From Longimicrobium sp. (lineage in GTDB: Bacteria > Gemmatimonadota > Gemmatimonadetes > Longimicrobiales > Longimicrobiaceae): DNA of 49,970 bases. The number at the start of each line of letters is the position of its first letter. The first letter of the stretch is position 1. The notes under the pieces were generated by a model that saw nothing but the letters and a program-made list of their open reading frames with translations, had not been told where the DNA came from and searched no databases. Shown piece after piece: positions 6,998-46,321 of the stretch. Both the position numbers and the translations under genes were made by a program. The stretch lies in NCBI GenBank assembly GCA_035638875.1, contig DASQZE010000232.1:1-49970 (forward strand). The letters are read 5' to 3'.

Positions 6998-7111
6998 GGC
7001 GGGATGAAAGAATGAGGGCAATGGGAAGAGGAAGCCGAGTGCAGGCACGGAGCGGGAGCCCGCACTGCCCGGCCCCCCGCCCCGCCGAACGAAAACCCGT
7101 CGACGTATATA

Positions 7112-7175
7112 CCTTCTCCCACGCAGTTTGTGGGAGACGGTGGACGAGCCTGAGCGAGGCCGGGTGAGGGCCCCC
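7112..7175 (+). repeat. Family B (DUF559-associated) repeat, diverged solo copy
   Basis: TCTCCCAC-loop-GTGGGAGA hairpin followed by GGTG..CGAGCCTGAGCGAG..GGTGAGGGC, matching 31801-31861. Confidence 0.65.
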
Positions 7176-27398: not shown

Positions 27399-27521
27399 GA
27401 TCCGGGTGCCGGAGCGCTGATCGAGTGCCGGAGCGATGATCGAGTGCCGGAGCGGTGGCAGTCCTCCCGCCGAGCGAATGAATTCGCCGCAACGAACACA
27501 CGATGTCCGCCTGCGCGGACT
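27399..27521. repeat. Three ~19-bp tandem units followed by a family A REP-like copy (minus strand)
   Basis: GATCGAGTGCCGGAGCG x3 (first imperfect); GCGAATGAATTCGC...GTCCGCCTGCGCGGACT at 27472-27521. Confidence 0.75.
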
Positions 27522-27675
27522 CTCCGTCACGGGAAAGTGCCACGCCGGCACGGGCTCCGCGAAAGGACAAGGGCGGCATCAACGGATTGCGACCCAGATC
27601 GGCAGATGCGCGAAGCCCCGCCACGGGGCGGGGCTTTGCTGATCGCGGGCATCGGCCTGTCCGCCCGATCCGCTC

Positions 27676-30040: not shown

Positions 30041-30978
30041 CGGCCGCGCTCCAGCACGTACGCCGCCAGCGCCTCCAGCTCCGCCGACGCGATCCCCGCC
30101 TCGTGCAGCGCGCCCACGGCCCGCGCCGTCCGCTCGCGCGCCATCTCCTCCGCCCGCGCCAGCCCGAAGAGCGACGGGTAGGTGGCCTTCCCCGCCCCGG
30201 CGTCCTTGCCCGCCGTCTTGCCCAGCTCCGCGTCCGTGCGCGTCACGTCCAGCACGTCGTCCACGATCTGGAACGCCAGCCCCAGCTCGCGCCCGTAGGC
30301 CGTCAGCCCCTCCACCCGCCGCGCGTCCGCTCCCGCCGCCAGCGCCCCGATGCGCAGCGACGCGGCCAGCAGGGCGCCCGTCTTGAGGCGGTGGATGCGC
30401 TCCAGCCCGTCCGCGTCCACGCGCGCACCGGGCTCCTCGCCCAGCAGGTCCAGCCACTGCCCGCCCACCATGCCGCGCGCCCCGCCCGCCTGGCACAGCT
30501 CCGCCACCAGCCGCCCCCGCCCCGCCGCGTCGATCCCCAGGTCGCGCGCGGCGCCGTCCAGCACGCGCACGGCCGCGGGGATGAGCGCCGCGCCCGCCAG
30601 CAGCGCCGCACGCTCGCCGTACACCACGTGCACCGTGGGCCGGCCGCGGCGCAGGGCGTCGTCGTCCATGCACGGCAGGTCGTCGTGCACGAGCGAGTAC
30701 GTGTGCACGATCTCCAGCGCGCACGCCAGCCGGTACACCGCGTCCGGCGGATGCGCCGGACGCACCATTCGCCACGCGGCCACGCAGAGGATCGGCCGCA
30801 GGCGCTTGCCGGGCGTGGCCAGCGCGTAGGCCACGGGCGCGCCCAGGTCGTCCGGCGCACCTTCCGCCAACCCCGGCGCGACGACGGCCAGGGTCGCGTT
30901 GACCCGCTCGCGCTCCCGGTGCAGGAACGCGTCCGTGTCGAACGGCGCCGGCGGGTCCATGACGGCGGACTCGCTCAC
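30037..30978 (-). CDS. ispA: Farnesyl diphosphate synthase / polyprenyl synthetase
   Basis: GKRLRP, HTYSLVHDDLPCMDDD, GQWLDL and FQIVDDVLD motifs. Confidence 0.95.
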   Translation of the reverse strand: MSESAVMDPPAPFDTDAFLHRERERVNATLAVVAPGLAEGAPDDLGAPVAYALATPGKRLRPILCVAAWRMVRPAHPPDAVYRLACALEIVHTYSLVHDDLPCMDDDALRRGRPTVHVVYGERAALLAGAALIPAAVRVLDGAARDLGIDAAGRGRLVAELCQAGGARGMVGGQWLDLLGEEPGARVDADGLERIHRLKTGALLAASLRIGALAAGADARRVEGLTAYGRELGLAFQIVDDVLDVTRTDAELGKTAGKDAGAGKATYPSLFGLARAEEMARERTARAVGALHEAGIASAELEALAAYVLERGR

Positions 30979-31226
30979 GGCTCCCCGGCAAAGTCTTCCA
31001 GGCGGCTGCCGCCCAGCCCGTCGTCCAGCAGCTGGCGGATGCGGTGGTCGGCCCCTTCGAGCACGCCCTCGGCAAAGCGGAGCAGCCGCACGCCCTCTTC
31101 GAACAGGGCCAGCGACTCGTCCAGCTCCAGCGACTCGCCCTCGATGCGCCCCACGATCTCGCCCAGGCGGTCGAGCGCAGCCTCGAAGGTCCAGCCGGCG
31201 TGGGTGTCGGTGGCGGATTGCGCCAT
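30975..31226 (-). CDS. xseB: Exodeoxyribonuclease VII small subunit
   Basis: FEAALDRLGEIV..IE...LELDESLALFEEG; start 31226 or 31232. Confidence 0.93.
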   Translation of the reverse strand: MAQSATDTHAGWTFEAALDRLGEIVGRIEGESLELDESLALFEEGVRLLRFAEGVLEGADHRIRQLLDDGLGGSRLEDFAGEP

Positions 31227-31288
31227 GGTCATCGTATCGATCGAAAGCCTGGGGAGATCAGTGACTGCAAGCGTCAGATTCAGTGCAC

Positions 31289-31878
31289 GTGGGCAGGCAT
31301 CCGGCGGCGCCCCCACCGCTCGCTTAGGCTCGCACCTCCCCCAAAAAAAACCTGGGGGAGGTTAAACTGCGGGTACGTGCACCGTGAAATGATGGTGCGT
31401 CAGGCCGGCTCTGAGCCGGCCGCGGCGGCGGCGATCCGGCGCACGACGTCATCCAGATTGCGCAGAACCTCTTCATTGCGGAAGCGCAGCACGCGATACC
31501 CGTGCGTCTCCAGCGCCTCCGTACGCGCGGCGTCGCGGTCTTGTTGTGCATCGTGGATGCCGCCGTCCACTTCCACCACCAGCCGGAGCGACGCGCAGTA
31601 GAAATCCAGGACGAAGCGGCCTACCGGATGCTGCCGCCGGAACTTCAGGCCGGCGACCTGCTTCTTCTGCAACGCGCCCCAGAGCGCCGCCTCGGCGGCG
31701 GTCGGCTCGCGACGCATGGCCTGCGCCGCCTGCTCCAACTCCGGTGTGGTTCCGCGGATCGTCTTCCGCATCGAGTCTCCCCTCTCCGCACCGAACCGCT
31801 GTTCAACCTCCCCCAGGGTTTTTTGGGGGAGGTGCGAGCCTAAGCGAGCGGTGGGGGCGCCTTTGGATGCCCGCCACC
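31289..31878. mobile_element. Inverted-repeat-bounded DUF559 cassette inserted between xseA and xseB
   Basis: Near-perfect ~85-bp inverted repeats (31289-31372 and 31796-31878), each with an internal CCTCCCCCA..TGGGGGAGG hairpin, enclose one nuclease ORF. Confidence 0.75.
31400..31771 (-). CDS. DUF559 / Vsr-like endonuclease-domain protein
   Basis: MRREPTAAEAALW, KFRRQHPVGRFVLDFYC, VVEVDGGIH, RD..RT..L...GYRVLRF.N motifs. Confidence 0.92.
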   Translation of the reverse strand: MRKTIRGTTPELEQAAQAMRREPTAAEAALWGALQKKQVAGLKFRRQHPVGRFVLDFYCASLRLVVEVDGGIHDAQQDRDAARTEALETHGYRVLRFRNEEVLRNLDDVVRRIAAAAAGSEPA

Positions 31879-31927
31879 TCGGTGTATCACCCGTCTCGCT
31901 CCTACTCACCCACCTCGCTCCCCCGCC

Positions 31928-33316
31928 CTACTCCGCCTCTGCCGCGCCCTCCACCGCCTCCACCCGCGCCGTCACCGACCCGTCGACCACGCGCAGCCGG
32001 AATTCCGCGCCCGGCGCAAAGTCCGCCGCGCGGCGCAGCACGCGGCCGGCGGGGTCCAGGGGGACGGCGTAGCCGCGGGCCAGGGTGGAGAGCGGCGACA
32101 GCGCGTTCAATCGCCCCGCCAGCGCGGCGATGCGGTCGCGGCGGCCGGCCACCAGCCGCTCGCGCGCGTCGCGCAGGTCCAGCCGCGCCTCGAACAACCG
32201 CTCGCGATGGTTCTCCACACGCTCCGCCACGCACCGTCCCATCCGCCCCCGCAGGTCCACCAGCCCGCGGCGCAGCGTCAGGCGGTCCGGCACGGCGGCC
32301 TCGGCGGCGGCGGAGGGCGTGGGCGCGCGCAGGTCCGCGACCAGGTCCGCGATGGTGAAGTCCGTCTCGTGGCCGACCGCGCTGATCACGGGCACGGGCG
32401 ATTCCGCGATGGCGCGGGCCACGGGCTCTTCGTTGAAGGCCCACAGGTCCTCCGTGGATCCCCCGCCCCGCCCCACGATCAGCACGTCCGCGCACCCCGC
32501 CGCGCCAATGCGCCGGATGGCCGCCGCGATCTCGTCCGCCGCGCCCTCGCCCTGCACCCGCGCCGCGCTCAGCACGATGCGCGTCCACGGCGCGCGGCGG
32601 CGGATCACGCTGATCACGTCGTGCAGCGCCGCGCCGGCAGACGACGTGACGATCCCCACGCACGCCGGATGCAGCGGGATGGGGCGCTTCCGCGCGGGGG
32701 ACGTGAGCCCCTCCATCTCCAGTTTGATCCGCAGCCGGTCGAACGCCAGCTTCCACAGCCCCTCGCCCCGCGCCTCCAGCTCCGAGACCACGAGCTGGAA
32801 CTCGCCGCGGCCCTCGTAGATGGTCAGCTTGCCCAGGGCGCGGACCTCCATCCCCTCGGCCGGCTGCGTGGGCAGGCGCTTGGCGTCCGGCCGCCACATC
32901 ACGCAGCGCACCTGCGATTCGCGGTCGCGCAGGGTGAAGTAGCAGTGGCCCGACTTGGCCCGGGTAAAGCTGGTCACCTCGCCGTTCACCCACACGGCGG
33001 AGAACATCCCCTCGATCAGGGCGCGCGCGGCCGCGTTCAGCGTGGTGGGCGTCCATCCGCCCTCCGGCGTCTCCTCCTTCTCCTTCCGCTTCACCGCGGG
33101 CGCACGGCGGGGCTTGGCGGACTTGACCGGGAGCAGGATCTCCTCCTCGATCTCAGCCATGACCTCCATCTCCACCGACGCCTGGATGGGATCGGCGAGA
33201 AAGCCCGCGTCCGCCTGGCGCGCGGCGACGCGGCGCGCCACGTCCTCGTTGCGCGTCTCGTTCAGCTCGCCAGGTTTTTCGGCGGCCGCGGCGGAGGAGA
33301 ACAGGTCCCAGCTCAC
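31928..33316 (-). CDS. xseA: Exodeoxyribonuclease VII large subunit
   Basis: VWVNGEV..F....SGHCYFTL, GRGGGS.EDLWAFN and SAVGHETD motifs; GTG start overlaps the folD stop. Confidence 0.95.
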   Translation of the reverse strand: MSWDLFSSAAAAEKPGELNETRNEDVARRVAARQADAGFLADPIQASVEMEVMAEIEEEILLPVKSAKPRRAPAVKRKEKEETPEGGWTPTTLNAAARALIEGMFSAVWVNGEVTSFTRAKSGHCYFTLRDRESQVRCVMWRPDAKRLPTQPAEGMEVRALGKLTIYEGRGEFQLVVSELEARGEGLWKLAFDRLRIKLEMEGLTSPARKRPIPLHPACVGIVTSSAGAALHDVISVIRRRAPWTRIVLSAARVQGEGAADEIAAAIRRIGAAGCADVLIVGRGGGSTEDLWAFNEEPVARAIAESPVPVISAVGHETDFTIADLVADLRAPTPSAAAEAAVPDRLTLRRGLVDLRGRMGRCVAERVENHRERLFEARLDLRDARERLVAGRRDRIAALAGRLNALSPLSTLARGYAVPLDPAGRVLRRAADFAPGAEFRLRVVDGSVTARVEAVEGAAEAE

Positions 33317-34221
33317 CGGAGCGCGGCGGCGGGGCGGCGGCGGGCGGCATCGTGCGCCCGGCGGGCCGCGGTGATGGTGTTGCGCAGCAGCATGGCGATG
33401 GTCATCGGCCCCACGCCACCAGGGACGGGGGTGATGGCGGACGCCACCTCCGCCACCGCGTCGAAGTCCACGTCGCCCTTGATGACGTAGCCCCGGGGGG
33501 ACGACGGATCGTCCACGCGCGTCACCCCCACGTCGAACACGGCCGCGCCCGGCTTGACCATGTCCGCCGTGATCAATCCCGGCTTGCCGACCGCGACGAC
33601 CAGGATGTCGGCCATCCGCGTGTGCTGCGCCAGGTCGACCGTGTGGCGGTGGCAGAGCGTGACCGTCGCGTTGGGCCCCGGCGCCATCAGCAGCGACGCC
33701 AGCGGCTTGCTCACGATCAGGCTGCGCCCCACGACGACGGCGTGCTTGCCGTGCGTGTCGATGCGCTCGCGGCGCAGCAGCTCCATGATCCCCTCCGGCG
33801 TGGCGGGGACGAAGCCGTTGGGATCGCCCACGAAGGCACGGCCCACGTTCATGGGATGGAATCCGTCCACGTCCTTGTTCGGCGCCACGCGCTCCAGGAA
33901 CGCCTTGGAGCTCAGGTGCACCGGCAAGGGGAGCTGGACGAGGATGCCGTGGATTGCGGGATCGGCGTTCAGCCCGTCGATGGTGCCGAACAGTTCGTCG
34001 GCCGACGTGTGCTCGGGGAGGTGGAGGACGCGCGAGTGCATCCCCGCCTCCTGGCACGCGCGGGCCTTGCTGCGCACGTACACCTCGCTGGCGCCGTCGC
34101 TGCCCACCAGCACCACGGCCAGCCCCGGCACCGTGCCCCCCGCCCGAAGCTGCGCCACCTCCGCCGCCGCCTCTTCGCGGATGGAGCGCGCCACCGCCGT
34201 CCCGTCGATGATCCTGGCCAC
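33313..34221 (-). CDS. folD: Methylenetetrahydrofolate dehydrogenase/cyclohydrolase
   Basis: IIDG, GILVQLPLP, KDVDGFHP and ITPVPGGVGPMT motifs. Confidence 0.97.
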   Translation of the reverse strand: MARIIDGTAVARSIREEAAAEVAQLRAGGTVPGLAVVLVGSDGASEVYVRSKARACQEAGMHSRVLHLPEHTSADELFGTIDGLNADPAIHGILVQLPLPVHLSSKAFLERVAPNKDVDGFHPMNVGRAFVGDPNGFVPATPEGIMELLRRERIDTHGKHAVVVGRSLIVSKPLASLLMAPGPNATVTLCHRHTVDLAQHTRMADILVVAVGKPGLITADMVKPGAAVFDVGVTRVDDPSSPRGYVIKGDVDFDAVAEVASAITPVPGGVGPMTIAMLLRNTITAARRAHDAARRRPAAALR

Positions 34222-34228
34222 GATCCTC

Positions 34229-35041
34229 TTATTTCCGTTTGAACTCGCCCTGGAGCACCCGCTCGTAGGGAACGTCCACACGCTCGATGGAGCGCGCAAG
34301 CCCCGTCTTTTCATCCACGTCCACCACCGCGCCCTGCACGCGCAGGTCCCCGTCCGCGGGCTGCATGCGCTCGCCCTTGGACTGCCGCAGCTGCCGGTCG
34401 AGCGAGATGTCGGCCTTCATCCCGATGACGCCGTCGTGCCCGCCCGTCATCCCCAGGTCCGTGATGCGCGCCGTCCCCTTGGGCTGCACGCGCTCGTCCG
34501 CCGTCTGCACGTGCGTGTGCGTGCCCACCACGGCCGCCACGCGCCCGTCCAGGTACCGCGCGAACGCCTGCTTCTCGCTCGTGGCCTCGGCGTGGAACTC
34601 AACGACGATCACGTCGGCCAGCCCCTTGAGCTCGGCGAGCATGGCGTCCGCCGCGCGGAACGGGTCGTCGATGGGGACCATGAAGGTGCGCCCCTGCAGG
34701 TTCATCACCGCCAGCCGCACCCCGTCGAACACGCGGACCACGGAGCCGTGGCCGGGGTTGCCGGGCGGAAAGTTGGCCGGGCGCAGCAGGCGCGGCTCCT
34801 CGTCCAGGAGCCTGAGGATCTCCTTCTTGTCCCAGACGTGGTTGCCCGTGGTGATCACGTCCACGCCCGCCTCGAAGAACTCGGCCACTTCCGCCGGCGT
34901 GATGCCGAAACCGCCCGCCGAGTTCTCGCCGTTGGCGATGACCACGTCCGCGCGCACGTCGCCCTTGATGAGCCGGAGCAGCTGCTTGAGCACCCGCCGC
35001 CCCGGCGACCCGATCACGTCCGCGATGAAGAGAATCCGCAC
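34229..35041 (-). CDS. ymdB: YmdB/TIGR00282 metallophosphoesterase
   Basis: ILFIADVIG, NGENSAGG.G, GNHVWD, HAEATSEK and GTHTHVQTAD motifs. Confidence 0.93.
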   Translation of the reverse strand: MRILFIADVIGSPGRRVLKQLLRLIKGDVRADVVIANGENSAGGFGITPAEVAEFFEAGVDVITTGNHVWDKKEILRLLDEEPRLLRPANFPPGNPGHGSVVRVFDGVRLAVMNLQGRTFMVPIDDPFRAADAMLAELKGLADVIVVEFHAEATSEKQAFARYLDGRVAAVVGTHTHVQTADERVQPKGTARITDLGMTGGHDGVIGMKADISLDRQLRQSKGERMQPADGDLRVQGAVVDVDEKTGLARSIERVDVPYERVLQGEFKRK

Positions 35042-35087
35042 GTACGGCCTGTTCGTAAGATGATGAGTCCCGCGCCGGCAGCAGCCC

Positions 35088-35265
35088 GCCCCCCTCCCCG
35101 TCCCTCCCCCGCAAACTGCGCGGGGGAGGGAGAGAAAACCTTGCCTCCTCATACCCCGCAAACGCTCACGGACTCCGCCTTCAACCACCCCTCCCCCGAA
35201 AAGAGTTGGGGGAGGGGTCGGCCGCCGTTGCGAGGAACGAGCAAAAGGCAGCCGGGGGAGAGGGC
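35088..35265. repeat. Gene-less inverted pair of family B-like hairpin repeats
   Basis: CCCTCCCCCGC..GCGGGGGAGGG (35101-35131) and CCCCTCCCCC..GGGGGAGGGG plus GCGAGGAACGAGC..GGGGGAGAGGGC (35187-35265), in opposite orientation. Confidence 0.6.
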
Positions 35266-35536
35266 TCCCGTTGCATCGCGACGGCCGATGAGCCACAGCC
35301 CCCTCGCACGGCGGAGAATACACCCGCCATCCCCGAAGCGCGAGTCCGACCGAACATAATCCGAATATCGATGTTCGTCCATCCACCTTTTCCGGCCCCA
35401 GCGGTACCGAAAATCCTGGATCTCCAAGCAACGCAGCAGCTTGAAAGCGGCGGAGCCGTGCGGGACCGGCTTCGTACAACGCAAAAGCCCGCCGGAACGG
35501 TCTCCAGCGGGCCCTGCGGGAACCTCGTCCTCCCGG

Positions 35537-37111
35537 TCAGCGCGCGAAGTCGACCGCGCGCGTTTCGCGGATCACGACGACCTTGATCTGCCCCGGGTAC
35601 TGCAGCTCGGCCTCGATGCGGCGCGCCGTTTCTTCGCTCAGACGCGTCATGTCCTCGTCCGAGATGGCCTCGGGGGTCACCAGCACGCGCAGCTCGCGGC
35701 CGGCCTGGATGGCGAAGCAGCGCTCCACGCCGGGGAACGAGGTTGCGATCTCCTCCAGCTTCTCCAGCCGCTTGACGTACGTCTCGAACATCTCGCGCCG
35801 CGCGCCCGGCCGCGACCCGCTGATCGCATCGGCCGCGGTCACCAGGAACGACTCGGGGAACAGGTGCGGCTCCTCGTCGTGGTGCGCCTTGATGCCGTTG
35901 AGCACCTGCGCCGGCTCGTTGTACTTCTTGGCCAGGTTGTAGCCCAGCTCCACGTGCGTGCCCTCGTGCTCGTGGGTCATGCCCTTGCCCACGTCGTGCA
36001 GGATGCCCATGCGCTTGGCCATGGTGGCGTCGAAGCCCATCTCCGCGGCCATGTTGCCGGCCAGGATGGCGACTTCCTTGGCGTGCAGCAGCTGGTTCTG
36101 CCCGTACGACGTGCGGAACTTCAGGCGCCCCAGCACCTTGACGACCTCCGGGTGCACGCCGTGGATCCCCAGCTCGTACAGGATCTCCTCGGCGGCCTCG
36201 CGCATGCCGTTCTCCACCTCCTTGCGCGCCTTGCCGACCACTTCCTCGATGCGCCCGGGGTGGATGCGCCCGTCCGACACCAGCTTTTCCAGGGCGATGC
36301 GGGCCGTTTCGCGCCGCACGGGATCGAACCCGCTGAGCACCACCGCTTCCGGCGTGTCGTCGATGATGACGTCGATGCCGGTGGCCTGCTCGAACGCGCG
36401 GATGTTGCGCCCCTCGCGGCCGATGATGCGCCCCTTCATCTCGTCCGACGGCAGCGCCACGACGGAGACGGTGGTCTCCGCCGTGTGGTCCGCGGCGATG
36501 CGCTGGATGGCCAGGGAGATGATCTTCTTGGCCTCGCGCTCGGCGTCGCGCTTGGCCTCTTCCTTGATCTCGCGCACGCGCTGGGCACCGGCCGCGCGGG
36601 CCTGCTCCTCCATCTCGTGCATGAGCTGGCGGCGCGCCTCGTCGGCGTTCAACCCCGCGAGCGACTCCAGCCGGTGCTGCACCTCGGCGATGCGGTTCTG
36701 CAGCTCCACGCCCTGCGCCTCCACCTGTTTTTCGCGGTGGCCCAGCTCGTGGCCGCGGCGCTCCTGCGCCTCGCCCTTCTCGTCCAGCAGGTGGAACTTG
36801 CGGTCCAGGGCCTCCGTGCGCTCCTGCAGCCGCCGCTCCAGGCGGTCCACCTCGTCGCGCCGCTTGGTCTCCTCGCGCTCCCACTCCTCGCGCGACTTGA
36901 TGGCCTCTTCGCGCCCCTTGAGCACCTCGCCCTTGCGCAGGCTCTCGGCGTCCTGCTGGGCGGCGGCCAGGATGCGCGCGCGCTCGTCCTCGGCGGTCGC
37001 CCTGGCGGCGACTAGGCGTGCCTGGGTACGCGAATCGGTGACCGATTTCCCAGCGAAGAAGCCGACTGCGCCCGCGACCACGGCCGCGATGGCGATCAGC
37101 AGAATGTCCAT
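35537..37111 (-). CDS. rny: Ribonuclease Y
   Basis: N-terminal TM, coiled coil, KH domain (MKGRIIGREGRNIR), HD domain (LHDVGK), DAISGSRPGAR; start MDILL. Confidence 0.97.
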   Translation of the reverse strand: MDILLIAIAAVVAGAVGFFAGKSVTDSRTQARLVAARATAEDERARILAAAQQDAESLRKGEVLKGREEAIKSREEWEREETKRRDEVDRLERRLQERTEALDRKFHLLDEKGEAQERRGHELGHREKQVEAQGVELQNRIAEVQHRLESLAGLNADEARRQLMHEMEEQARAAGAQRVREIKEEAKRDAEREAKKIISLAIQRIAADHTAETTVSVVALPSDEMKGRIIGREGRNIRAFEQATGIDVIIDDTPEAVVLSGFDPVRRETARIALEKLVSDGRIHPGRIEEVVGKARKEVENGMREAAEEILYELGIHGVHPEVVKVLGRLKFRTSYGQNQLLHAKEVAILAGNMAAEMGFDATMAKRMGILHDVGKGMTHEHEGTHVELGYNLAKKYNEPAQVLNGIKAHHDEEPHLFPESFLVTAADAISGSRPGARREMFETYVKRLEKLEEIATSFPGVERCFAIQAGRELRVLVTPEAISDEDMTRLSEETARRIEAELQYPGQIKVVVIRETRAVDFAR

Positions 37112-37453
37112 GGAACGTCTATTTTCAGCGCGGGATAGGCCCCCGCGACGCCGGTCCAAAACAGAAAAAGGTGGCCGAGCCCCGTCACCCGCCACCGCAA
37201 TGCTGAGCCGCGCTCAGTTTATCTGCGGCTTTGGTTCGGCCGCAACGGGAAAACATACGAAGAGTTGCGGGTTGGTGGCAAGGTGCTGCGCGGGTCGGGC
37301 GCGTGCCGGGTTTGGCCTTTGTACTCGTTCTGTGTAGATTCGGTGCATTGAACCCAGCCACATATACCCCGTGTCAGGCGGTCTTTTGGTCTTTCACCAT
37401 GGAATCCGTGAAGTCTAAACGCCGTCAGTCATCTCCGACGGGAGGTCAAAGCC

Positions 37454-37630
37454 ATGACAGAAACGCCGATCAAAGCGGTTGAACTGACGCGGTCGATTCG
37501 CGATCAGATGTACGAGGAGACCAAGAGCATGACTCCAGACGAGTTCGTGGCGTTCATCACGCGCGAAGCCGGAAAGGCTCGGCCCGCATTGGCCACGGTC
37601 CCGAGCACCGGCGACGGTCACGCGGTCTGA
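37454..37630 (+). CDS. Small 58-aa protein, orphan antitoxin-like (not in ORF track)
   Basis: GGAGG RBS at 37441; MTETPIKAVELTRSIRDQMYEETKSMTPDEFVAFITREAG...; followed by a terminator. Confidence 0.65.
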   Translation: MTETPIKAVELTRSIRDQMYEETKSMTPDEFVAFITREAGKARPALATVPSTGDGHAV

Positions 37631-37646
37631 CGAATGCCTGGATGAG

Positions 37647-37688
37647 AAAGGCGCTGGTCCCCCTTTACGTGGACCAGCGCCTTTTCTT
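37647..37688. terminator. Bidirectional terminator
   Basis: AAAGGCGCTGGTCC...GGACCAGCGCCTTTT. Confidence 0.8.
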
Positions 37689-37771
37689 CACCGGAATCAA
37701 CTCATCACCCGCGCAGCGTGTACAGAAGCGCTCGAATCCGCTGTTGCTGGCCGTAACCTGTCCCCCGCAGT

Positions 37772-38074
37772 TCAGCCGAGCGCGTCCTCCAGAAGGTCCG
37801 CGATCTCCGCCGTCCGCACCTCGGCCTCGGCGCGCAGCCGCTCGATCTCTTCGCGGGCCTTGAACAGCTCGTCCGTGATCGACAGGCTCGCCAGGATGGC
37901 CGCCCGGTCGCGCTCCAGCGTGGGAAAGGAGGGGAGTGAGCGGATGATCTCGTCCACGTGCGCGGCGATGGCGCGCGTGCGCTCGGGCGGGACGTCGCTG
38001 CGCAGCACGTGGCGCTCGCCCGCGATCTCCACGGCGACGGTGTGGCGCTGCGGCGGCGGCTTGCGCGGGCTCAT
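37772..38074 (-). CDS. zapA: Cell division protein ZapA
   Basis: VAVEIAGERHVL...IAAHVDE...AAILASLSITDELF; pheT-zapA-rny synteny. Confidence 0.88.
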   Translation of the reverse strand: MSPRKPPPQRHTVAVEIAGERHVLRSDVPPERTRAIAAHVDEIIRSLPSFPTLERDRAAILASLSITDELFKAREEIERLRAEAEVRTAEIADLLEDALG

Positions 38075-38409
38075 GGGCGGTTCTCCAGCACGGTGAGCCG
38101 CGCCAGCAGCCCCATGATGCGCTGCCGGGCCTCCGCCGCGCGGCTCGTGAGCACGGCGTTCTCCGCGCGCAGCCGCCGCAGCTCGTCCCCCGCCTCGTCC
38201 GAGGGGAGCGGCCCGAGCGACGTAAGCTGCTCCAGCTCCGTACGCAGCCGCTGCACCTCGTGCTCCGCCTCCGTAGCGCGCTTGCGCCACTCCGCCAGCG
38301 CCTCCGCGGCGGCCCGGGAGGCACGCTCCAGCCGCTCCCACCCGGCGTTCTCGGCGGATGGGGTGTCATCAAGCGTCTCCAGGGCGGAATCAGCGGCGCC
38401 GGATGCCAT
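38071..38409 (-). CDS. Coiled-coil protein upstream of zapA (ZapB-like)
   Basis: Heptad pattern (LRRLRAENAVL); ATGA coupling to zapA. Confidence 0.7.
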   Translation of the reverse strand: MASGAADSALETLDDTPSAENAGWERLERASRAAAEALAEWRKRATEAEHEVQRLRTELEQLTSLGPLPSDEAGDELRRLRAENAVLTSRAAEARQRIMGLLARLTVLENRP

Positions 38410-40753
38410 GCCGCTCCTCGAGGGTGCGGAGGACGAGGCTCACCGCCCCATCCACCTCCGCGTCCGTCAGCGTGCGTTCGGGCGCGCGGAAGCGCAGGCG
38501 GAACGCCACGCTCCGCGTCCCGTCCGGAATCCCCTTGCCCTCGTACAGGTCGAACGGGAACACGTCCTCCAGCAGCGCACCCGCCGCCTCGCGGATCGTC
38601 CCGTCCACGTCCCCCGCGCTCTTTCCCGCCGGCAGCAGCAGCGCCAGGTCGCGCTCCGAGCCGGGGTGGACCGGGATCGGCTGATACAGCACCTCGCGGC
38701 GCGCGGCGGAGGTGCCCGGGAGCGTGGCTTCCACGATCAGCACGGGCCCGGCCCACGCGGGCGCATCCACCTCGCCCGCCGCGGCCACGCGCCCGTTGCC
38801 CTTCTCGTGCCCGTCCGCCGTGCGCAGGACGAACGCGCCGTCCACCGCCTCCACGCGGGCGCCGGGGTACTCGGCCGCGAGTTCCTCCATCAATCCCTTC
38901 ACGTCCCACACGTCGTAGTCCGGCGCGGCGCCGGACCAGTGCGGCGGCCGGCTGGCGCCCGTGAACGCCGCCGCCACGCGCTGCTCCTCGCGCGGCAGCC
39001 CCCCGTCCGGCGCGGCGAAGAAGGCCGTGCCCAACTCGAACAGGCGCACGTCGCGGACGCCGCGGGCCAGGTTGTGCTCCACGCGCCGCAGCAGCCCGGG
39101 CGCCAGGGTGCCGCGCAGGAAGCCCTCCTCCGCCGACAGCGGGTTCAGCAGGGGCACGGTGCCGGCGCCCTCCGGCGCGAAGCCGCCCGCGACCGACTCC
39201 AGGAATCCCCAGCGGACGAAGAGCGCGCGCATCCGCCGCTCCACGGCGATCACCGGGTGCTCCGGCACGGCCGTGGGGCGGAAGGGGAGCAGCTGCTCGG
39301 GGAACGAGCCATAGCCGCGGCGGCGCGCGATCTCCTCCACCAGGTCGATCTCCCCCGTCACGTCCGGCCGGAAGCCGGGAACGAGCACGCGGATGGGCTT
39401 GGGGCGCGTGTTCACGTCGAAGCCGATGGGCTCCAGCAGGTCGCGGATCTCGTTGGGGGTCAGGGAGATGCCCAGCACCTTCTCTGCCCGCTCCTCGCGC
39501 AGCCCGATGGCGCGCCGCTCGAACCGTTGCGGCACCAGGTCCACGGCGCCCGCCGCCTGCCCGCCCGCCACGGCCAGGATGAGCTCGATGACGCGCTGCA
39601 TGGCCGTGGGCTGCCCCTCGGGGTCCACGCCGCGCTCGAAGCGGTGCGACGCGTCCGTGTTCAGCCCCAGCCGCCGCGCCGTCTTGCGCACGCGCCGGGC
39701 GTCGAAGAGCGCGACCTCGATGAACAGGTCCGTCGTGCGCTCGCTCACCTCGCTGTCCTGCCCGCCCATCACGCCGGCCAGGGCGACCGCGCCCTCGCCG
39801 TCCGCGATCACCACGTCCGTCTCCAGCAGCGCGCGCTCGGCGCCGTCCAGCGTCGTCAGCGTCTCGCCGGCATGGGCGCGGCGGACGGCGATCCGTCCGC
39901 CCCGCAGCAGGCGGAGGTCGAAGGCGTGGATGGGCTGCCCCAGCTCGTGCAGCACGTAGTTGGTGGCATCCACCACGTTGTTGATGGGACGCAGCCCCAC
40001 GGCGCGCAGCCGCGTGGCCAGCCACTCCGGCGACGGGCCCACGGTGACGCCGTGGATGACGGCGCCCATGTAGCGCGAGCAGCCCTCCTCGTCGTCGATG
40101 GCCACCTCGATCCCCGGCGCGTCCGCCTCGCGCTTGCCCTGCTTTACGGGGCAGGCGTGGCCGCGATCGTTCGGAAACTTCGGGAGCTCGATGCCGTCCT
40201 CGCCGCGGGGCGCCAGCTCGCGCGCCACGCCCAGGTGCGACAGCAGCTCGCCGCGGTTGGGCGTGACGTCGACGACGAGCCGCCAGTCGTCCAGCCCCAG
40301 CGCCTGGCGGAAGTTGGCGCCGGGGGCGAAGTCGCCGTGCAGCGTCATCAACCCGCCGTGGTCGCGCCCCAGCCCCAGCTCGCGCGCGGAGCACAGCATC
40401 CCCTGCGACTCTTCGCCGCGGAGCCTGGCCTTCTTGATCTCCATGCCGCCCGGCAGCGTGGCGCCGATGGGGGCAAAGGGATACAGGCCGCCCGCCTCCA
40501 CGTTGGGCGCGCCGCACACCACCTGGAGCGGGTCGCCGCTCCCGGCGTTGACGGTGCAGATGCGCAGGCGGTCGGCGTTGGGGTGCTGGCGCACGTCTTC
40601 AACGCGCGCGATGACCACGTCGCCGATGCCGGCGCCCAGGTCCACCACCTCGTCCACGGGTGCGCCCAGCATGGCCAACCGCTCCGCCAGCTCGTGCGGG
40701 GTGCCCCGCAGGCCCGGGGCGATGGAGTGCAGCCAGCGATAGGAGATGTTCAT
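38390..40753 (-). CDS. pheT: Phenylalanine-tRNA ligase beta subunit
   Basis: HPNADRL, VVCGAPNV, SQGMLCS, TPNRG and INNVVD motifs; FDX-ACB C-terminus. Confidence 0.97.
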   Translation of the reverse strand: MNISYRWLHSIAPGLRGTPHELAERLAMLGAPVDEVVDLGAGIGDVVIARVEDVRQHPNADRLRICTVNAGSGDPLQVVCGAPNVEAGGLYPFAPIGATLPGGMEIKKARLRGEESQGMLCSARELGLGRDHGGLMTLHGDFAPGANFRQALGLDDWRLVVDVTPNRGELLSHLGVARELAPRGEDGIELPKFPNDRGHACPVKQGKREADAPGIEVAIDDEEGCSRYMGAVIHGVTVGPSPEWLATRLRAVGLRPINNVVDATNYVLHELGQPIHAFDLRLLRGGRIAVRRAHAGETLTTLDGAERALLETDVVIADGEGAVALAGVMGGQDSEVSERTTDLFIEVALFDARRVRKTARRLGLNTDASHRFERGVDPEGQPTAMQRVIELILAVAGGQAAGAVDLVPQRFERRAIGLREERAEKVLGISLTPNEIRDLLEPIGFDVNTRPKPIRVLVPGFRPDVTGEIDLVEEIARRRGYGSFPEQLLPFRPTAVPEHPVIAVERRMRALFVRWGFLESVAGGFAPEGAGTVPLLNPLSAEEGFLRGTLAPGLLRRVEHNLARGVRDVRLFELGTAFFAAPDGGLPREEQRVAAAFTGASRPPHWSGAAPDYDVWDVKGLMEELAAEYPGARVEAVDGAFVLRTADGHEKGNGRVAAAGEVDAPAWAGPVLIVEATLPGTSAARREVLYQPIPVHPGSERDLALLLPAGKSAGDVDGTIREAAGALLEDVFPFDLYEGKGIPDGTRSVAFRLRFRAPERTLTDAEVDGAVSLVLRTLEERHGIRRR

Positions 40754-40760
40754 TGACGGC

Positions 40761-40930
40761 CAGGGAATAGGGAATAGGGAATAGGGAATAGCGGGCCGTT
40801 GATCCGCCGAGTCCCCGCCCTGCTCCCGGTTGTTTGTCGTTGCTCAGCCTCTCCGTTCGAGGGAATGGGGAGGGGAACCGGAATGCCGTGCAGTTGCAGG
40901 CTATTCCCTATTCCCTATTCCCTATTCCCT
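40761..40930. repeat. ~170-bp MITE-like element with (GGGAATA)n inverted ends
   Basis: (GGGAATA)4 ... GCCGTGCAGTTGCAGGC(TATTCCC)4; interior homologous to 42041-42211. Confidence 0.85.
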
Positions 40931-41967
40931 CACGAGAACTGCCCCAAAAACCGCATGTCCCCCTCGTACAGCAGCCGGATGTCCGGCAGCTTGTACCGCT
41001 GCAGGGCGATGCGGCCGGGGCCCATGCCAAAGGCGTAGCCCGTGTACTTCTCGGGATCGTAGCCCACGTTCTCGAAGACGTTGGGGTGCACCATGCCGGC
41101 GCCCATGATCTCCATCCACCCCGTGTGCTTGCACGCGCTGCACCCCGCGCCGGCGCAGATGCGGCACGACACGTCCACCTCCGCCGACGGCTCGGTAAAG
41201 GGGAAGAACGAGGGGCGAAAGCGCGTCCTGGCGTCCGCGCCGAAGAAGCGGCGCACGAACTCGCTGATGGTCGCCTTGAAGTCGGAGAAGGTGATCCCCT
41301 CGTCCACGGCCAGCCCCTCCAGCTGGGCGAACGCGGGCGCATGGCTGGCGTCGTACGGGTCGCGGCGGTACACCATGCCGGGCACCACCACGCGCACGGG
41401 CGGCGCGAACGCCTCCATCACGTGCGCCTGCGCCGGCGACGTGTGGGTGCGCAGCACGACGCCGTCCGCCAGGTAGAAGGTGTCGTGCATGTCGGCCGCG
41501 GGGTGGTCCAGCGGTGTGTTGAGCTTGCTGAAGTTGTACTCGACCGTCTCCACCTCCGGCCCCGCCACGCGGCTGAACCCCAGGTCGCGGAAGATGTCGC
41601 AGATCTCGTCGATCACCAGCGTCACGGGATGCACCCCGCCCCGCCAGCGCTGCCGGCCGGGGAGGGTGAGGTCGATGCGCGGCCCCTCGTCCGCCGTGCC
41701 CGAGAACGCGGACTCGCGCTCCTCCAGCAGGGCGTTCAGGGCCTCCTTGACCCGGTTGGCCTCGGCGCCCACGACGGGCTTTTCCTCGGCGGAGAGCTCG
41801 CCCAGGCGGCGCAGAATGCCCGTGAGCCGGCCCTTGCGGCCCAGGTACTCCGTGCGCAGCCCCTCCAGCGCCTCGGCCCCGCCGGCGGCGCGCACGGCCT
41901 CGGCGCCTTCGCCTTCCAGGCCGCGGAGCTGGGCGATCAGTTCTTCGGTTACGGTCGTCATCGTCAT
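40930..41967 (-). CDS. pheS: Phenylalanine-tRNA ligase alpha subunit
   Basis: HPAADMHDTFY, LRTHTS, RPSFFPFTEPS and GAGMVHP motifs; start 41967 or 41961. Confidence 0.97.
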   Translation of the reverse strand: MTMTTVTEELIAQLRGLEGEGAEAVRAAGGAEALEGLRTEYLGRKGRLTGILRRLGELSAEEKPVVGAEANRVKEALNALLEERESAFSGTADEGPRIDLTLPGRQRWRGGVHPVTLVIDEICDIFRDLGFSRVAGPEVETVEYNFSKLNTPLDHPAADMHDTFYLADGVVLRTHTSPAQAHVMEAFAPPVRVVVPGMVYRRDPYDASHAPAFAQLEGLAVDEGITFSDFKATISEFVRRFFGADARTRFRPSFFPFTEPSAEVDVSCRICAGAGCSACKHTGWMEIMGAGMVHPNVFENVGYDPEKYTGYAFGMGPGRIALQRYKLPDIRLLYEGDMRFLGQFS

Positions 41968-42040
41968 CCGTGGTTCCGCCCTGCTGAATGCAGGAACCCA
42001 AACTTAGCCGCGCGCGTGCATTTGGCTACCCCAGGAAGAA

Positions 42041-42211
42041 CAGGGAATAGGGAATAGGTAATAGGGAATAGCGGGATTGGGGACCCGCGGGCTCCCTGCC
42101 CTCCTTCCGGTGTTCGTTGCAGCCTCAGCCCTCCGGGCAGGGATTGGACCGAGGGAGGAGCCGGGATGCCGTGCAGTTGCAGGCTATTCCCTATTCCCTA
42201 TTCCTATTCCC
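42041..42211. repeat. Second ~170-bp (GGGAATA)n MITE-like element
   Basis: Same ends and related interior as 40761-40930. Confidence 0.85.
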
Positions 42212-42282
42212 TCGTCGTGCAAACGGAAAGCGGCGCCGGAGGAAAGAATCCCCCGGCGCCGCTGACTCCCGTCCCGCCGCCG

Positions 42283-42642
42283 TCAGGCAGCCAGGCTCGT
42301 CTTGGCGGCGCTGGCGATCTGCCCAAAGGCGTTGGGATCGCGCACGGCGATGTCCGCCAGCACCTTGCGGTCGATCTCGATGCCGCCCTTGCGAAGGCCG
42401 TCCATCAGCCGCGAGTACGAAAGGCCGTTCAGGCGGGCCGCCGCGTTGATGCGGACGATCCACAGGCGGCGGAACTCGCGCTTGCGGTTCTTGCGGTCGC
42501 GGTACGCGTACTTGTGTGCGCGCTCCACGGCCTCCTTGGCCGTCTTGTACAGGTTCTTGCGGCGGCCGAAGTATCCCTTGGCCTGGGCAAGGATCTGGTT
42601 CTTGCGCTTGAGTCGCGCAACGTTGGTGCTTACACGCGGCAT
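42283..42642 (-). CDS. rplT: 50S ribosomal protein L20
   Basis: AKGYFG, YAYRDRK.RKR.FRRLWI.RINAA and DRKVLAD motifs. Confidence 0.98.
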
Positions 42643-42683
42643 TTCAGCCCTCCCGTTCTAAGAAATCGTTAGGTCGGCGAAAG

Positions 42684-42878
42684 TCAGTTGGCGAGCAGAC
42701 GCTTTACGCGCTGTTCGTCGGCCTTGGCGAGCATGGTGGTGCCGCGCAGGTTCCGCTTCCGCTTCGGCGACTTCTTGGTCAGGATGTGGCTGGTGAACGC
42801 GCTTCCACGCTTCACACGGCCCTTGGCCGTGACCTTGAAGCGCTTGGCGGCGCCGCGGTGGCTCTTCATCTTGGGCAT
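42684..42878 (-). CDS. rpmI: 50S ribosomal protein L35
   Basis: [14 protein letters not shown]...HILTKK. Confidence 0.98.
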
Positions 42879-42882
42879 CGTA

Positions 42883-43464
42883 CTACCTTTCGTCCGCCGC
42901 CGCAGCCGCGGCGGTAGGTTGGCTGGTCTGTTGTTGTTGCTGCTGCTGAGGGGGCTTCGCCGTGGGGGCGAGCACCATCACCATGCTGCGGCCTTCGAGC
43001 ATGGGGTGCGCCTCGATCTTCGAGACTTCCTGCAGCTCCTGAAACACACGGTCCAGCACCTTGCGCCCGTACTCCGGATGGGCCATCTGGCGCCCGCGGA
43101 ACATCATGGTGAGCTTGACCTTGTTCCCTTCCTCCAGGAACCTCTTGGCGTGGCGCACCTTGAATTCGAAGTCGTGTCCCTCGATTCCCGGGCGCATTTT
43201 CACTTCCTTCAGCTGCACGTGGTGCTGCTTCTTGCGCGCCTCGCGCGCCTGACGCTGCTCCTCGTACTTGAACTTGCCGTAGTCCATGATGCGGCAGACC
43301 GGCGGACGAGCCATGGGTGCGACCTCGACCAGGTCCAGCCCCTGCTCTTCCGCGATCTCCATCGCCCGTTCGATCGGCAGGATTCCCATCTGCTCGCCGG
43401 CCGGGTCGATGACACGGACGGGGCTGATGCGGATCTGCCGGTTCACACGCACTTTCTCGTTGAT
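42883..43464 (-). CDS. infC: Translation initiation factor IF-3, probable AUC start
   Basis: RVNRQIR, LDLVEV and [14 protein letters not shown] motifs; in-frame ATC at 43464 preceded by GGAGAG. Confidence 0.95.
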
Positions 43465-43504
43465 ACGCCGCTCTCCGGGCTTCGGGGTAAGGTGATGGTG
43501 CCAA

Positions 43505-43545
43505 ACAAAAAAAACGGACCCAATCATTCGATCAGGTCCGTCCAT
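43505..43545 (-). promoter_or_regulatory. Terminator-like hairpin in the infC leader (possible L20-type attenuator)
   Basis: ACGGACC...GGTCCGT followed by a U8 tract on the minus strand, ~40 nt before infC. Confidence 0.6.
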
Positions 43546-43681
43546 GCGCTGCACGCCGGCAATCGTCCCGGGTAACCGGGACGGCCGTCGTGCCTCGCGC
43601 GGACCTGGCAGCATCGCGTTTTGCGCGAGCCATACAGGTGGAGGACCCGCCGGTCCCCACTTTCCAGCAATTTGGCCGGGT

Positions 43682-43711
43682 AATCTACCCCCGGGGAGGG
43701 CATCCTGTCAA
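43682..43711 (-). promoter_or_regulatory. Putative sigma70 promoter of infC-rpmI-rplT
   Basis: TTGACA-N18-TAGATT on the minus strand. Confidence 0.6.
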
Positions 43712-43984
43712 CGGGGCGGCGAAGCTGAATTGCAAAGATCTCATCCAGACGCCGATGGACACTGGTCCACTCGCCACGTTTCGTTGTACACATCGGGATT
43801 GTATACAACACCAATGCAAGCGGAACCGTACTGGCAACCATCCGTCCTGAGCGGGTAAACCCGCCGCTGGGAATGCGATAAGCCCTGTCTCGCGCGACGC
43901 GCTTGCGAACAGGGTTTCAACTGCGTTACGGCACCGCGGCTCGGCCGGGGACGATGTTGCCATTACGACAACGCTCACCCGTGC

Positions 43985-44034
43985 AGTCTGCGCAGGCGGA
44001 CTTCGTGTCGTTGTTGCGGCGAATTCATTCGCTC
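43985..44034 (+). repeat. Family A REP-like copy
   Basis: AGTCTGCGCAGGCGGACTTCGTG...GCGGCGAATTCATTCGCTC. Confidence 0.85.
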
Positions 44035-44093
44035 GGCGGGAGAGTGGCTCCGGGGTTGGATGCTCGTGGGGCACGGCCGCGTCCGGCCCTTGT

Positions 44094-44573
44094 CTACTCG
44101 CCGTCCACGAAGCGCGTGAGCAGGCGGGCGAAGGTGCGGCGCTCGTCGTCCGTCCAGCCACCCATGGTCTCGGCGAAGGCGCGCTGGCGGATGCGATGCG
44201 CGGATTCGGCGAGGGCGCGACCGGTGTCCGTCAGGCGCAGGCCCACGCGGCGGCCGTCGGACTGGGAGGCCACGCGCTCCACGTAGCCGGCCTGGAGGGC
44301 GGACGTCACCACGCGGCTGGCCCGCGACGGATCGATGCCCAGCCGCTCGCCCACCATCCCCACCGTCACCGCACCGCCGGACGCGCCGGGGCCCTCCTCG
44401 ACCGCATCCACCACGCCCAGGTGGGCCAGGTCCACGTCTCCACCGAGCTCGCGCACCAGCCGCGCGCCCAGGTTGCGCCGGGTCATGTCGCGCCGCAGCC
44501 GCACGAAGGCGCGCTCCACGGCTGCCAGCGCCTCATCCGCCTCGGGTACGCTCTCTCGCTGTCGCTTGCTCAT
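44094..44573 (-). CDS. MarR-family transcriptional regulator
   Basis: TVGMVGERLGIDPSRASRVV and DGRRVGLRLTDTG winged HTH. Confidence 0.9.
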   Translation of the reverse strand: MSKRQRESVPEADEALAAVERAFVRLRRDMTRRNLGARLVRELGGDVDLAHLGVVDAVEEGPGASGGAVTVGMVGERLGIDPSRASRVVTSALQAGYVERVASQSDGRRVGLRLTDTGRALAESAHRIRQRAFAETMGGWTDDERRTFARLLTRFVDGE

Positions 44574-44591
44574 GGGATCCAAAGCTACCGG

Positions 44592-44649
44592 TTGACACTG
44601 GACAGCGGCAAGAATATGCTTTGATCAGTTATATGCTTTAAACACATAT
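44592..44649 (+). promoter_or_regulatory. Promoter and putative MarR operator
   Basis: TTGACA-N17-TATGCT; ATATG-N9-CATAT palindrome at 44631-44649 and a second ATATGCTTT half-site at 44614. Confidence 0.65.
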
Positions 44650-44666
44650 CGACTGGCGAGGACGAG

Positions 44667-45140
44667 ATGCGAGAGTTGACCATCGCGGTGCACTGGCTGC
44701 ACGTGCTGGGCGGGATCGTGTGGTTCGGCGGGCACGTGTTCACGGCGGCGGTGATCTGGCCCGCCCTGCTCCGCCGCCCCGCGCCGGAGGCGAAGGCGCT
44801 CAGCGACGCCATGGCGGAACCGGCGATGCGGGTGATGGGGCCGGCGGGGATGCTCGTGCTGGTGCTGGGGATCGTGCGCGGGACGGTGCTGGGGCCGGTG
44901 CGGTCGCTGGACGTGCTGTTCGGAACGGCGTACGGGTGGACGTTCGCGGCGGCGCTGCTGCTGACGTTCTTCCTGATGGGATACGCGGGCGCCACGCGGA
45001 AGGAGATGGAGGATCGCGTGTGGGACGGCGAGCGCTTTCAGCCCGGCGCGGCGGCGTACCTGCGCCGCAGCAGCGCCATCAACCTCGGCGGATTGGCCGC
45101 GATCCTCGTCTGCATGGTGCTGATGCGCTTCGGGCTGTAG
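44667..45140 (+). CDS. Four-TM membrane protein (CopD/DUF2269-like)
   Basis: HWLHVLGGIVWFGG, four hydrophobic segments, divergent from marR. Confidence 0.8.
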   Translation: MRELTIAVHWLHVLGGIVWFGGHVFTAAVIWPALLRRPAPEAKALSDAMAEPAMRVMGPAGMLVLVLGIVRGTVLGPVRSLDVLFGTAYGWTFAAALLLTFFLMGYAGATRKEMEDRVWDGERFQPGAAAYLRRSSAINLGGLAAILVCMVLMRFGL

Positions 45141-45160
45141 GGGGTGAACGGCGAGTGGAA

Positions 45161-45237
45161 TGGCGGGCTTCCGGCGGGCGCCCCCACCGCTCGCCGAGGC
45201 TCGCACCTCCCCCCAAAACCCTGGGGGAGGTTGAACT
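45161..45237 (+). repeat. Family B repeat, solo copy nearly identical to the DUF559-flanking repeats
   Basis: GGCGCCCCCACCGCTCGCCGAGGCTCGCACCTCCCCCCAAAACCCTGGGGGAGGTTGAAC. Confidence 0.9.
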
Positions 45238-46277: not shown

Positions 46278-46321
46278 CCGTCTGCGGCTCCGGACGTCCC
46301 TCTCAATCCGCATCCCGCCCC

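Follow-up and report, generated by a model that had tools for sequence, protein, structure and literature searches.

A DUF559 gene enclosed by inverted, predicted triplex-forming repeats in Longimicrobium: a candidate enzyme-repeat partnership

The cassette between xseA and xseB

The window analysed here is the whole stretch of 49,970 nucleotides taken from a Longimicrobium sp. contig (DASQZE010000232.1). Its source assembly (GCA_035638875.1, hereafter G000) amounts to 4.68 Mb, with 70% GC and a completeness of 73%. Between two host genes, the window carries a cassette made of a short DUF559 gene and two inverted arms:

30975..31229, minus strand: xseB (Exonuc_VII_S, Pfam), host gene downstream of the cassette
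31292..31375, minus strand: 3' arm, on the xseB side, with a third strand at ~31310-31317, a 17-nt linker and a core hairpin at 31335-31361 toward the gene
31400..31771, minus strand: DUF559 gene, 123 aa, a stand-alone Vsr/EDxHD-fold nuclease domain with residues E27, D56, E67, D69, H73 and D80
31796..31875, plus strand: 5' arm, on the xseA side, with a core hairpin at 31807-31832 toward the gene and a 17-nt linker, TGCGAGCCTAAGCGAGC
31928..33316, minus strand: xseA (Exonuc_VII_L, Pfam), the host gene that lies upstream of the cassette, with an approximate start

The open reading frame at 31771..31400 (minus strand) scores 136.5 bits against Pfam PF04480 (DUF559), for which the curated cut-off is 20.6, and therefore belongs to this family; DUF559 is the only Pfam domain that it contains. 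This bears out the preliminary description of the window, which had recognised a 123-aa DUF559 gene enclosed by inverted repeats.

Structure of the arms

The two arms (31292-31372 and 31796-31875) align over 81 nt with 90% identity and one gap. They do form an inverted repeat, although its description as near-perfect and ~85 bp long slightly overstated both length and identity. On the G-rich strand, which is the plus strand in the 5' arm and the minus strand, predicted to be triplex-forming, in the 3' arm, the order of the elements is CCTCCCCC, a loop, GGGGGAGG, the 17-nt linker and GGTGGGGG, the last lying at ~31850-31857 in the 5' arm. The hairpin and the GCTCGC-TTAG-GCTCGC module had been correctly described, the latter being a direct repeat in the linker that joins the hairpin to a mirror-image purine run, but this third run of the G-rich strand had been overlooked. 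It mirrors the purine stem, and in the window arms all eight of its triads (8/8) are allowed. The arms thereby have the broad layout of a class II intrastrand triplex, with a pyrimidine stem, a complementary purine stem, a mirror third strand, and G·GC and A/T·AT triads, and each arm is predicted to form a hairpin plus a triplex in single-stranded DNA.

A mirror third strand lies at most 75 nt from the hairpin in 293 of the 336 copies of the core hairpin found in the genome, against 109 of 5000 random windows. Where the purine stem has an A, the mirror has A or T in 78 of 84 cases, a partial covariation among copies that are not independent. Where the stem has a G, the mirror has G in 132 of 209 cases and a mismatching A in 77, and these 77 count against the explanation that we favour below. 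At one triad position, T occurs in 23 of the 25 G000 copies of the window-arm subtype (both arms included) and A in the copies and arms listed for its relatives, both bases being compatible with a triad.

The repeat family has at least four linker classes. The pattern CGA[GA]-N3-8-CGA[GA] was found in 186 of 219 long linkers, and the longest class has an outer stem with compensatory variants. Tandem G·A pairs in hairpins are stable, and we infer that the linker may form a tandem-G·A hairpin on the G-rich strand, in place of a short loop. Standard folding with ViennaRNA did not form this hairpin, which counts against our favoured explanation; folding programs do not model triplexes. Searches with the Rfam families gave no match across positions 30500-46500 of the window.

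Copies in the window and in the genome

The genome-wide count that the preliminary description had proposed yields 336 core hairpins in the 4.68-Mb assembly, 25 exact copies of the window-arm subtype and, by an iterated profile search, 239 repeat matches. As the core hairpin pattern read backwards has 0 matches, this abundance is beyond chance. Within the window, the following copies lie outside the cassette:

7110..7174, plus strand: diverged family member with a 23-nt linker
35088..35265, no strand assigned: gene-less pair of two other subtypes, hairpins inward, like the arrangement around DUF559
45162..45237, minus strand: solo copy of the window-arm subtype, 87% identity over 78 nt

All three places had been noticed from the letters alone. 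The diverged copy at 7112 proves to be a related subtype with another linker; the solo repeat at 45161 is present, its "near-identical" match being one of 87% over 78 nt; and what had been taken for a diverged copy at 35088-35265 is instead two facing units of two other subtypes. A comparison of window positions 45140-45345 with the corresponding locus of a close relative (L157 in G041, flanks ~90-96%) revealed a repeat remnant followed by a GIY-YIG-type repeat, which reads as turnover of the repeat family at this one site.

The copies are intergenic, with 1 of 293 inside a called gene. They divide 85:67 (p 0.17) with respect to the mRNA strand, and this absence of bias favours a role at the DNA level; a terminator-like or mRNA-strand role was rejected on this ground. 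Among 51 close repeat pairs, 37 have their hairpins inward, 13 are tandem and 1 is outward. A profile search found no DUF559 remnant in any of the 35 spacers of gene-less pairs and, since the two ends are also mostly of different subtypes, we rejected the idea that these pairs are deletion derivatives.

Several other features of these regions were observed. The gene-less spacers of the 37 inward pairs of G000 often hold further units, including RAYT-type and GIY-YIG-type ones, and the three repeat families cluster and nest within the same intergenic regions of this genome. At 5226-5306, 40761-40930 and 42041-42204, the window has a tandem repeat of the heptamer GGGAATA arranged as inverted pairs, which is unrelated to the DUF559 arms. 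Near a contig end of G000, there is a DUF559 fragment of ~45 codons (L003, G000:C11:2974-3108), and the repeats preceding it are GIY-YIG-type, not triplex-type. Finally, in comparison with L155, ~430 nt of a PIN-like toxin-type ORF (translated by eye) are missing from the window at 37340-37440; in G041, this ORF lies upstream of a short conserved ORF.

Association of the repeats with DUF559 genes

Of the 72 DUF559 loci fetched from the genus, 8 were dropped for short flanks, and the 64 remaining loci, which include the window, represent ~24 site clusters; therefore, the sites and not the loci are the independent units. Inverted repeats surround the gene in 59 of these 64 loci. When a single pattern was used for the core hairpin, it was found on both flanks of 54/64 DUF559 genes, 0/30 Y1/RAYT genes and 0/29 small GIY-YIG genes, and of 20 among 2796 ordinary genes called by our own rough gene caller. 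Across phyla, 80 DUF559 loci were fetched (roughly a dozen from Longimicrobiaceae) and 5 dropped, and inverted flanks were present in 54 of the remaining 75, against 0 of 52 distal controls. Both expectations of the preliminary description, that DUF559 homologs would be flanked by repeats and that the repeats would not track RAYT/IS200 genes, hold in these samples. Inverted flanks were found in 0/6 multi-domain DUF559 loci, a contrast that speaks for a specific link. In a further set of DUF559 loci they were called in only 10/19, which counts against the favoured explanation.

At the genome level, all 24 genus relatives have core hairpins (79-679 per genome), and 22 of the 24 have a full-length DUF559 match, mostly in 1-4 copies. 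In two other families without a short DUF559 gene, 15 of 16 genomes have 0-1 hairpins, a comparison confounded by kinship. Within an unrelated family of the same phylum (f4), at least five hairpins occur in 6/13 genomes with DUF559 versus 5/61 genomes without it (Fisher p 0.003, kin not being independent). The gene itself is patchy in the phylum, in 22 of 151 genomes.

Other genomes fit the pairing less well and count against the favoured explanation. In family f10, the gene is present in 7 of 9 genomes with only 0-2 matches to the pattern, because the flanks there carry another hairpin variant. In one 93% complete relative (G013), 88 hairpins occur without any match to DUF559, another (G024) has 77 copies of the window-arm subtype and no gene at xseA-xseB, and in the 73% complete G000, most copies are of subtypes without a resident cognate gene. 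Given the G024 copies and the orphan subtypes of G000, a strict specificity of one enzyme for one subtype is doubtful.

Among the cross-phylum matches, the arms are reversed in L099, L113, L115-L117, L130, L135, L136, L139-L142, L145 and L150, with the third strand beside the gene; these loci are mostly alphaproteobacterial and often have a GCGAAGC-type linker hairpin. In 14 of the 80 matches (within L083-L110), DUF559 plus translated arms lie in frame inside ORFs of at least 230 aa, in Chloroflexota, Bacteroidota and others. DUF559 has been reported as enriched among predicted targets of programmed inversion (PMC9881135), which probably reflects the same inverted arms.

Repeats of the RAYT and GIY-YIG genes

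In the genus, inverted repeats of their own, different from the DUF559 arms, flank RAYT genes in 28/30 loci and small GIY-YIG genes in 21/29. The second repeat family of G000, of the GAATGAATTCGC...GTCCGCCTGCGCGGAC type, has several hundred motif matches genome-wide and is also present in the window:

1783-1856, 27464-27544, 43983-44048, 46105-46278 and 49275-49620: members of the second family

It flanks the RAYT-like Y1 genes of this genome (C99, C53 and C598), whose four Y1 matches lie on other contigs than the window. With subtype-matched arms in 28 of the 30 genus loci, these genes and repeats make up a conventional REP/RAYT system. A third family, of the GTCATCCTGAG...CCGAAGGATCT type (278 motif matches in G000), flanks a small stand-alone GIY-YIG gene (L009/L267, G000:C460:370-684), and GTCAT-type repeats flank the GIY-YIG genes of the genus. 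This gene is probably Ssn or belongs to a sister group.

Residence and exchange of the cassettes

As the preliminary description stated, the cassette separates xseA from xseB, two genes that abut in 6 of the 17 genus relatives examined. Of the other relatives, four have the cassette (one frameshifted), one has repeats only, one another insert, one repeats at a contig end, and four have no xseA within the locus. The five DUF559 genes found at xseA-xseB form one clade (99/91) that roughly tracks the host tree; the gene entered this site once, long ago, and has been passed on vertically, and a recent insertion was rejected for these reasons. The preliminary description held that a gene vertically fixed at its site would speak against a mobile system, and such fixation is what we observed at xseA-xseB. 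Nevertheless, it does not refute the idea, as the genes of the genus occupy ~24 site clusters, with apparent in-place exchange elsewhere.

This exchange concerns two other sites, each compared among close relatives. At the first one, G021 differs from G020/G023 by a DUF559 protein of only 53-54% aa identity and by different arms, with flanks at 93-97% nt identity and ispA at 92-95%; at the second one, G003 and G006/G011 have flanks at 97%, DUF559 proteins at 52-54% and different arms. For comparison, the remaining pairs of DUF559 orthologs in these genomes are at 93-96%. Near-identical flanks around divergent genes and arms point to an exchange of the cassette in place. This reading depends on the divergence mismatch, because with the short protein alignment of the first site, an AU test did not reject monophyly of its genes (p 0.28). 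An inverted cassette was found at the first site in G019. At L021 and L023 (G006/G011), in comparison with L032, the right arm of G003 persists as the outermost repeat, inside which lie new arms and another DUF559 gene. A sequence resembling the left flank of G003 is inverted on the right, a layout that suggests a switch of template from one arm to another.

One arm subtype is common to three supported protein clades that occupy different sites. The deep co-phylogeny of nuclease and repeat that had been anticipated was not found overall, however (rho ~0.07, median p 0.28, with one locus per site and n=22). In 50 of 61 cases, the best-ranking match of an arm is its own mate, a result that carries little weight because it is biased by the definition of the arms from their mutual alignment. 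Target duplication, also anticipated, was not seen above control: across 56 cassettes, the direct repeats found at the outer ends are, at their longest, comparable with the control, a weak test because these ends are ill-defined. In the assembled contigs (contigs only, not reads), there is no joint skipping or inverting the cassette, which says nothing for or against inversion or excision. DUF559 occurs in 5 of 50,697 phage records and 45 of 72,556 plasmid records.

The DUF559 protein

The model of the protein (pLDDT 84) matches PDB 3hrl in Foldseek with a TM-score of 0.71, 3r3p (I-Bth0305I) with 0.64 and 1vsr more weakly, and 3hrl is also matched by sequence. E67, D69, H73, D80, R83 and R96 are invariant in all 70 genus proteins (70/70), and D56 and E27 are conserved in 69 of 70. 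I-Bth0305I is described as using D196, H213 and D222 (PMC3239194), and the spacing of its D196 and H213 equals that of D56 and H73 here. The protein thus combines a Vsr-type fold with conserved acidic and histidine active-site residues. Among the xseA-xseB orthologs, dN/dS is 0.06-0.22, indicating purifying selection. From these features, the enzyme appears to be an active nuclease that, like SsnA, has no DNA-binding domain besides the catalytic one.

The synonymous divergence of the xseA-xseB orthologs is 2-3x that of ispA in the same pairs (~0.9-1.0 versus 0.3-0.4), for which a less biased codon usage, a locally raised mutation rate or a hidden replacement may be considered.

Possible mechanisms

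By analogy with SsnA, from which all the steps beyond the anatomy are borrowed, we lean cautiously towards an explanation in which the enzyme would recognise the folded G-rich repeat and nick beside it, host repair then copying repeats and swapping cassettes. The G-rich strand would fold during replication or repair, and the DUF559 enzyme would bind the folded repeat and nick near the fold, in the manner of Ssn and its hairpin. To repair the nick, the host would use another repeat copy as a template, or proceed by template switching; occasionally, this would copy repeats beside existing ones and keep the two arms alike, or replace the cassette of an occupied site by another. Neither strand-transfer chemistry nor target duplication would be required, and the xseA-xseB unit would be an old resident, kept vertically. 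The data themselves show the layout of gene and arms, its restriction to DUF559 among the three enzyme/repeat pairs of the genus, conserved catalytic-type residues under purifying selection, hundreds of scattered copies with a regular pair orientation, and a large number of occupied sites. To our knowledge, Vsr-fold enzymes of known chemistry act on duplex DNA, which counts against this explanation.

An alternative is a selfish homing cassette, whose minimal EDxHD-type nuclease would cut duplex DNA at or beside repeat sites, with the arms as portable homology. The gene would be copied in by recombination, and the dispersed repeats would be landing pads or debris rather than folded substrates. 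The nearest characterised fold is indeed that of I-Bth0305I, and the in-place exchange at occupied sites, the cassette that G019 carries inverted at the first of these sites and the 14 of 80 cross-phylum matches in frame inside ORFs of at least 230 aa can all be read in this sense. Still, we consider homing unlikely, as the protein has no DNA-binding domain beyond its catalytic core, the gene-less pairs of mostly two subtypes (no DUF559 remnant in 35/35 spacers) are not deletion debris, and the third strand and the linker are conserved beyond what plain homology needs. The rarity of the gene on phages and plasmids and its long vertical residence at xseA-xseB are also at odds with it. The purifying selection (dN/dS 0.06-0.22) and the full-length matches in 22 of 24 genus relatives could rather indicate a domesticated host function, modelled on the role proposed for SsnA in transformation, in which enzyme and repeats guard against single-stranded DNA that enters the cell or is exposed, or resolve forks that stall at these folds, and the spread is a by-product. 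SsnA modulates transformation (PMC11893778) and triplex motifs block polymerase in vitro (PMC4666352), as described in these papers, and such a function would be compatible with recognition and nicking of the folded repeat. Nevertheless, we give it little credence, considering the patchy distribution in the phylum (22/151), the many sites and paralogs with turnover, and the loss or frameshift of the gene at xseA-xseB in G024 and G018.

The gene might also be mere cargo of repeats that spread without it, through template switching where forks stall at triplexes, or via another protein; in a variant of this idea, the arms would possibly act in the RNA and dampen the expression of a toxic nuclease. 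Genomes rich in repeats in which no gene (G013) or no cognate gene (G024) was found speak for it, as do the lack of deep co-phylogeny and the reported instability of triplex-motif sites in E. coli (PMC4666352), and template switching alone could keep the arms alike. Yet cargo would not be expected to be one protein family across many phyla, and other small genes of the same repeat-rich genomes are not enclosed. A role in RNA fits poorly with the reversed arms of several Alphaproteobacteria loci and with solo copies lacking mRNA-strand bias. We hold this to be improbable as well, and recognition and nicking of the folded repeat by the DUF559 enzyme remains the explanation that we prefer.

Comparison with known systems

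REPtrons consist of a RAYT/TnpA-REP gene with REP/REPIN/BIME repeats (as described in PMC8266576 and PMC3733652). The DUF559 cassette resembles them, insofar as these papers describe them, in its inverted structured flanks, which occur elsewhere both singly and as oriented doublets, in its long vertical residence and in the absence of target duplication. In contrast, it has no HUH/Y1 domain, since Pfam gives DUF559 alone between the repeats, and lacks the catalytic tyrosine for strand transfer. No GTAG is found at the foot of the arm hairpin, the tails being subtype-specific, and the resident RAYT genes pair with a repeat family other than the DUF559 arms. Similarly, I-Bth0305I (PMC3239194) and Vsr share with DUF559 a common fold and the residue order E..D..H..D, but the 123-aa single domain has no N-terminal NUMOD DNA-binding repeats and is intergenic, not hosted by an intron or intein; repeats flank it instead. 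In contrast to Vsr, there is no partner methyltransferase in the window neighbourhood.

The published kin of the repeat, missed in the preliminary description, are the BoxC/PIT/TM (TMECO) intrastrand triplex motifs (Holder et al., 2015; PMC4666352), which have been known since the 1990s and for which Holder et al. report no mobilising gene. According to the same source, these motifs block polymerase in vitro and their sites are unstable in E. coli, and little triplex was detected in vivo, which counts against our favoured explanation. As in these motifs, the arms combine a pyrimidine stem, a purine stem and a mirror purine/T third strand (class II), are intergenic, show no strand bias and occur as inverted pairs of two different subtypes. 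However, the strict TMECO consensus, CCCTCNCCC N3-6 GGGNGAGGG N3 GGGNGAGGG, has 0 matches in G000, and 1 match when the loops are relaxed up to 6 nt. Strict membership was therefore rejected, and the arm repeat is to be regarded as a BoxC/TM variant. Its loops are of 10-11 nt (loop 1) and 17 nt (loop 2), against the 1-6 nt taken in the search of Holder et al.; it is tied to a nuclease gene, and its loop 2 has a predicted tandem-G·A hairpin. The CIR repeats (PMC2229807), described as GANTC-bearing two-arm elements, were considered and rejected as members of the arm family.

E. coli YcjD, to which the protein is 42% identical, and N. gonorrhoeae NGO0050 (PDB 3hrl) are uncharacterised DUF559 proteins. 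An exact TMECO lies ~170 nt downstream of the E. coli ycjD stop (located by eye), with a decayed unit over the stop and none upstream. The exact match speaks for the favoured explanation, and the restriction of the repeats to the 3' side counts against it. Within a literature scope that left aside subscription journals and the supplement of Holder et al., no link of DUF559 or ycjD to flanking repeats was found. The pairing bears on two gaps at once, namely the BoxC/PIT/TM repeats without a mobilising gene in PMC4666352 and the DUF559/YcjD proteins without a function. Both could be addressed using a single 14-kDa protein together with an oligonucleotide of 70 nt, and E. coli K-12, with ycjD and 23 TMECOs, offers a further setting. 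Should the enzyme prove to read a single-stranded DNA triplex, this would indicate that these folds arise in living cells, and would provide a new ssDNA-specific tool like Ssn.

The closest functional counterpart is Ssn, in which SsnA (GIY-YIG, cd10448) acts on the NTS/SRM hairpins (Chenal et al., 2025; PMC11893778). SsnA binds and cuts one strand of the hairpin only, as ssDNA, and its authors compare the gene layout to that of RAYT/REP. In the main text and 12 of the 14 supplements of that paper, DUF559 is unmentioned. The preliminary description knew of no mechanistic description of a system of this kind; Ssn, a biochemically described non-transposase nuclease flanked by its own hairpins, shows that the concept is not unprecedented, and what is new is the DUF559 fold with a triplex repeat class. 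Both systems, as far as Ssn is described there, have a tiny single-domain nuclease, not a transposase, enclosed by oriented hairpin repeats in hundreds of copies, and the layout of a small nuclease gene with a repeat on both sides was found in 54/64 DUF559 loci of the genus. In contrast, their folds are different (Vsr-like PD-(D/E)XK versus GIY-YIG), the arm sequence is unrelated to the Ssn hairpin (CGTCATTCCC...GGGAATC), and the DUF559 repeat has a purine hairpin with a mirror third strand and no CGTC tag. Moreover, SsnA activity has been demonstrated, whereas DUF559 is known here from its sequence and predicted structure. The genus GIY-YIG genes keep their own repeats, apart from the DUF559 pairs.

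The three-way partition of enzymes and repeats in one genus, the triplex variant with expanded loops and the same-site exchanges are new here, and the DUF559/repeat pairing is likely a third enzyme-repeat partnership beside RAYT and Ssn. More tentatively, DUF559/YcjD proteins could be dedicated enzymes of the BoxC/triplex repeats, whose triplex-recognising nicking would drive repeat spread and cassette exchange; theirs would be the third independent fold after HUH RAYT and GIY-YIG Ssn, with the three systems strictly partitioned in one genome. We see this as a possible generalisation, held with less confidence than the explanation favoured above. Three unrelated folds, each with its own repeat in one genus, suggest that a recurring scheme, a small nuclease paired with its cognate folded repeat, stands behind families of bacterial repeats.
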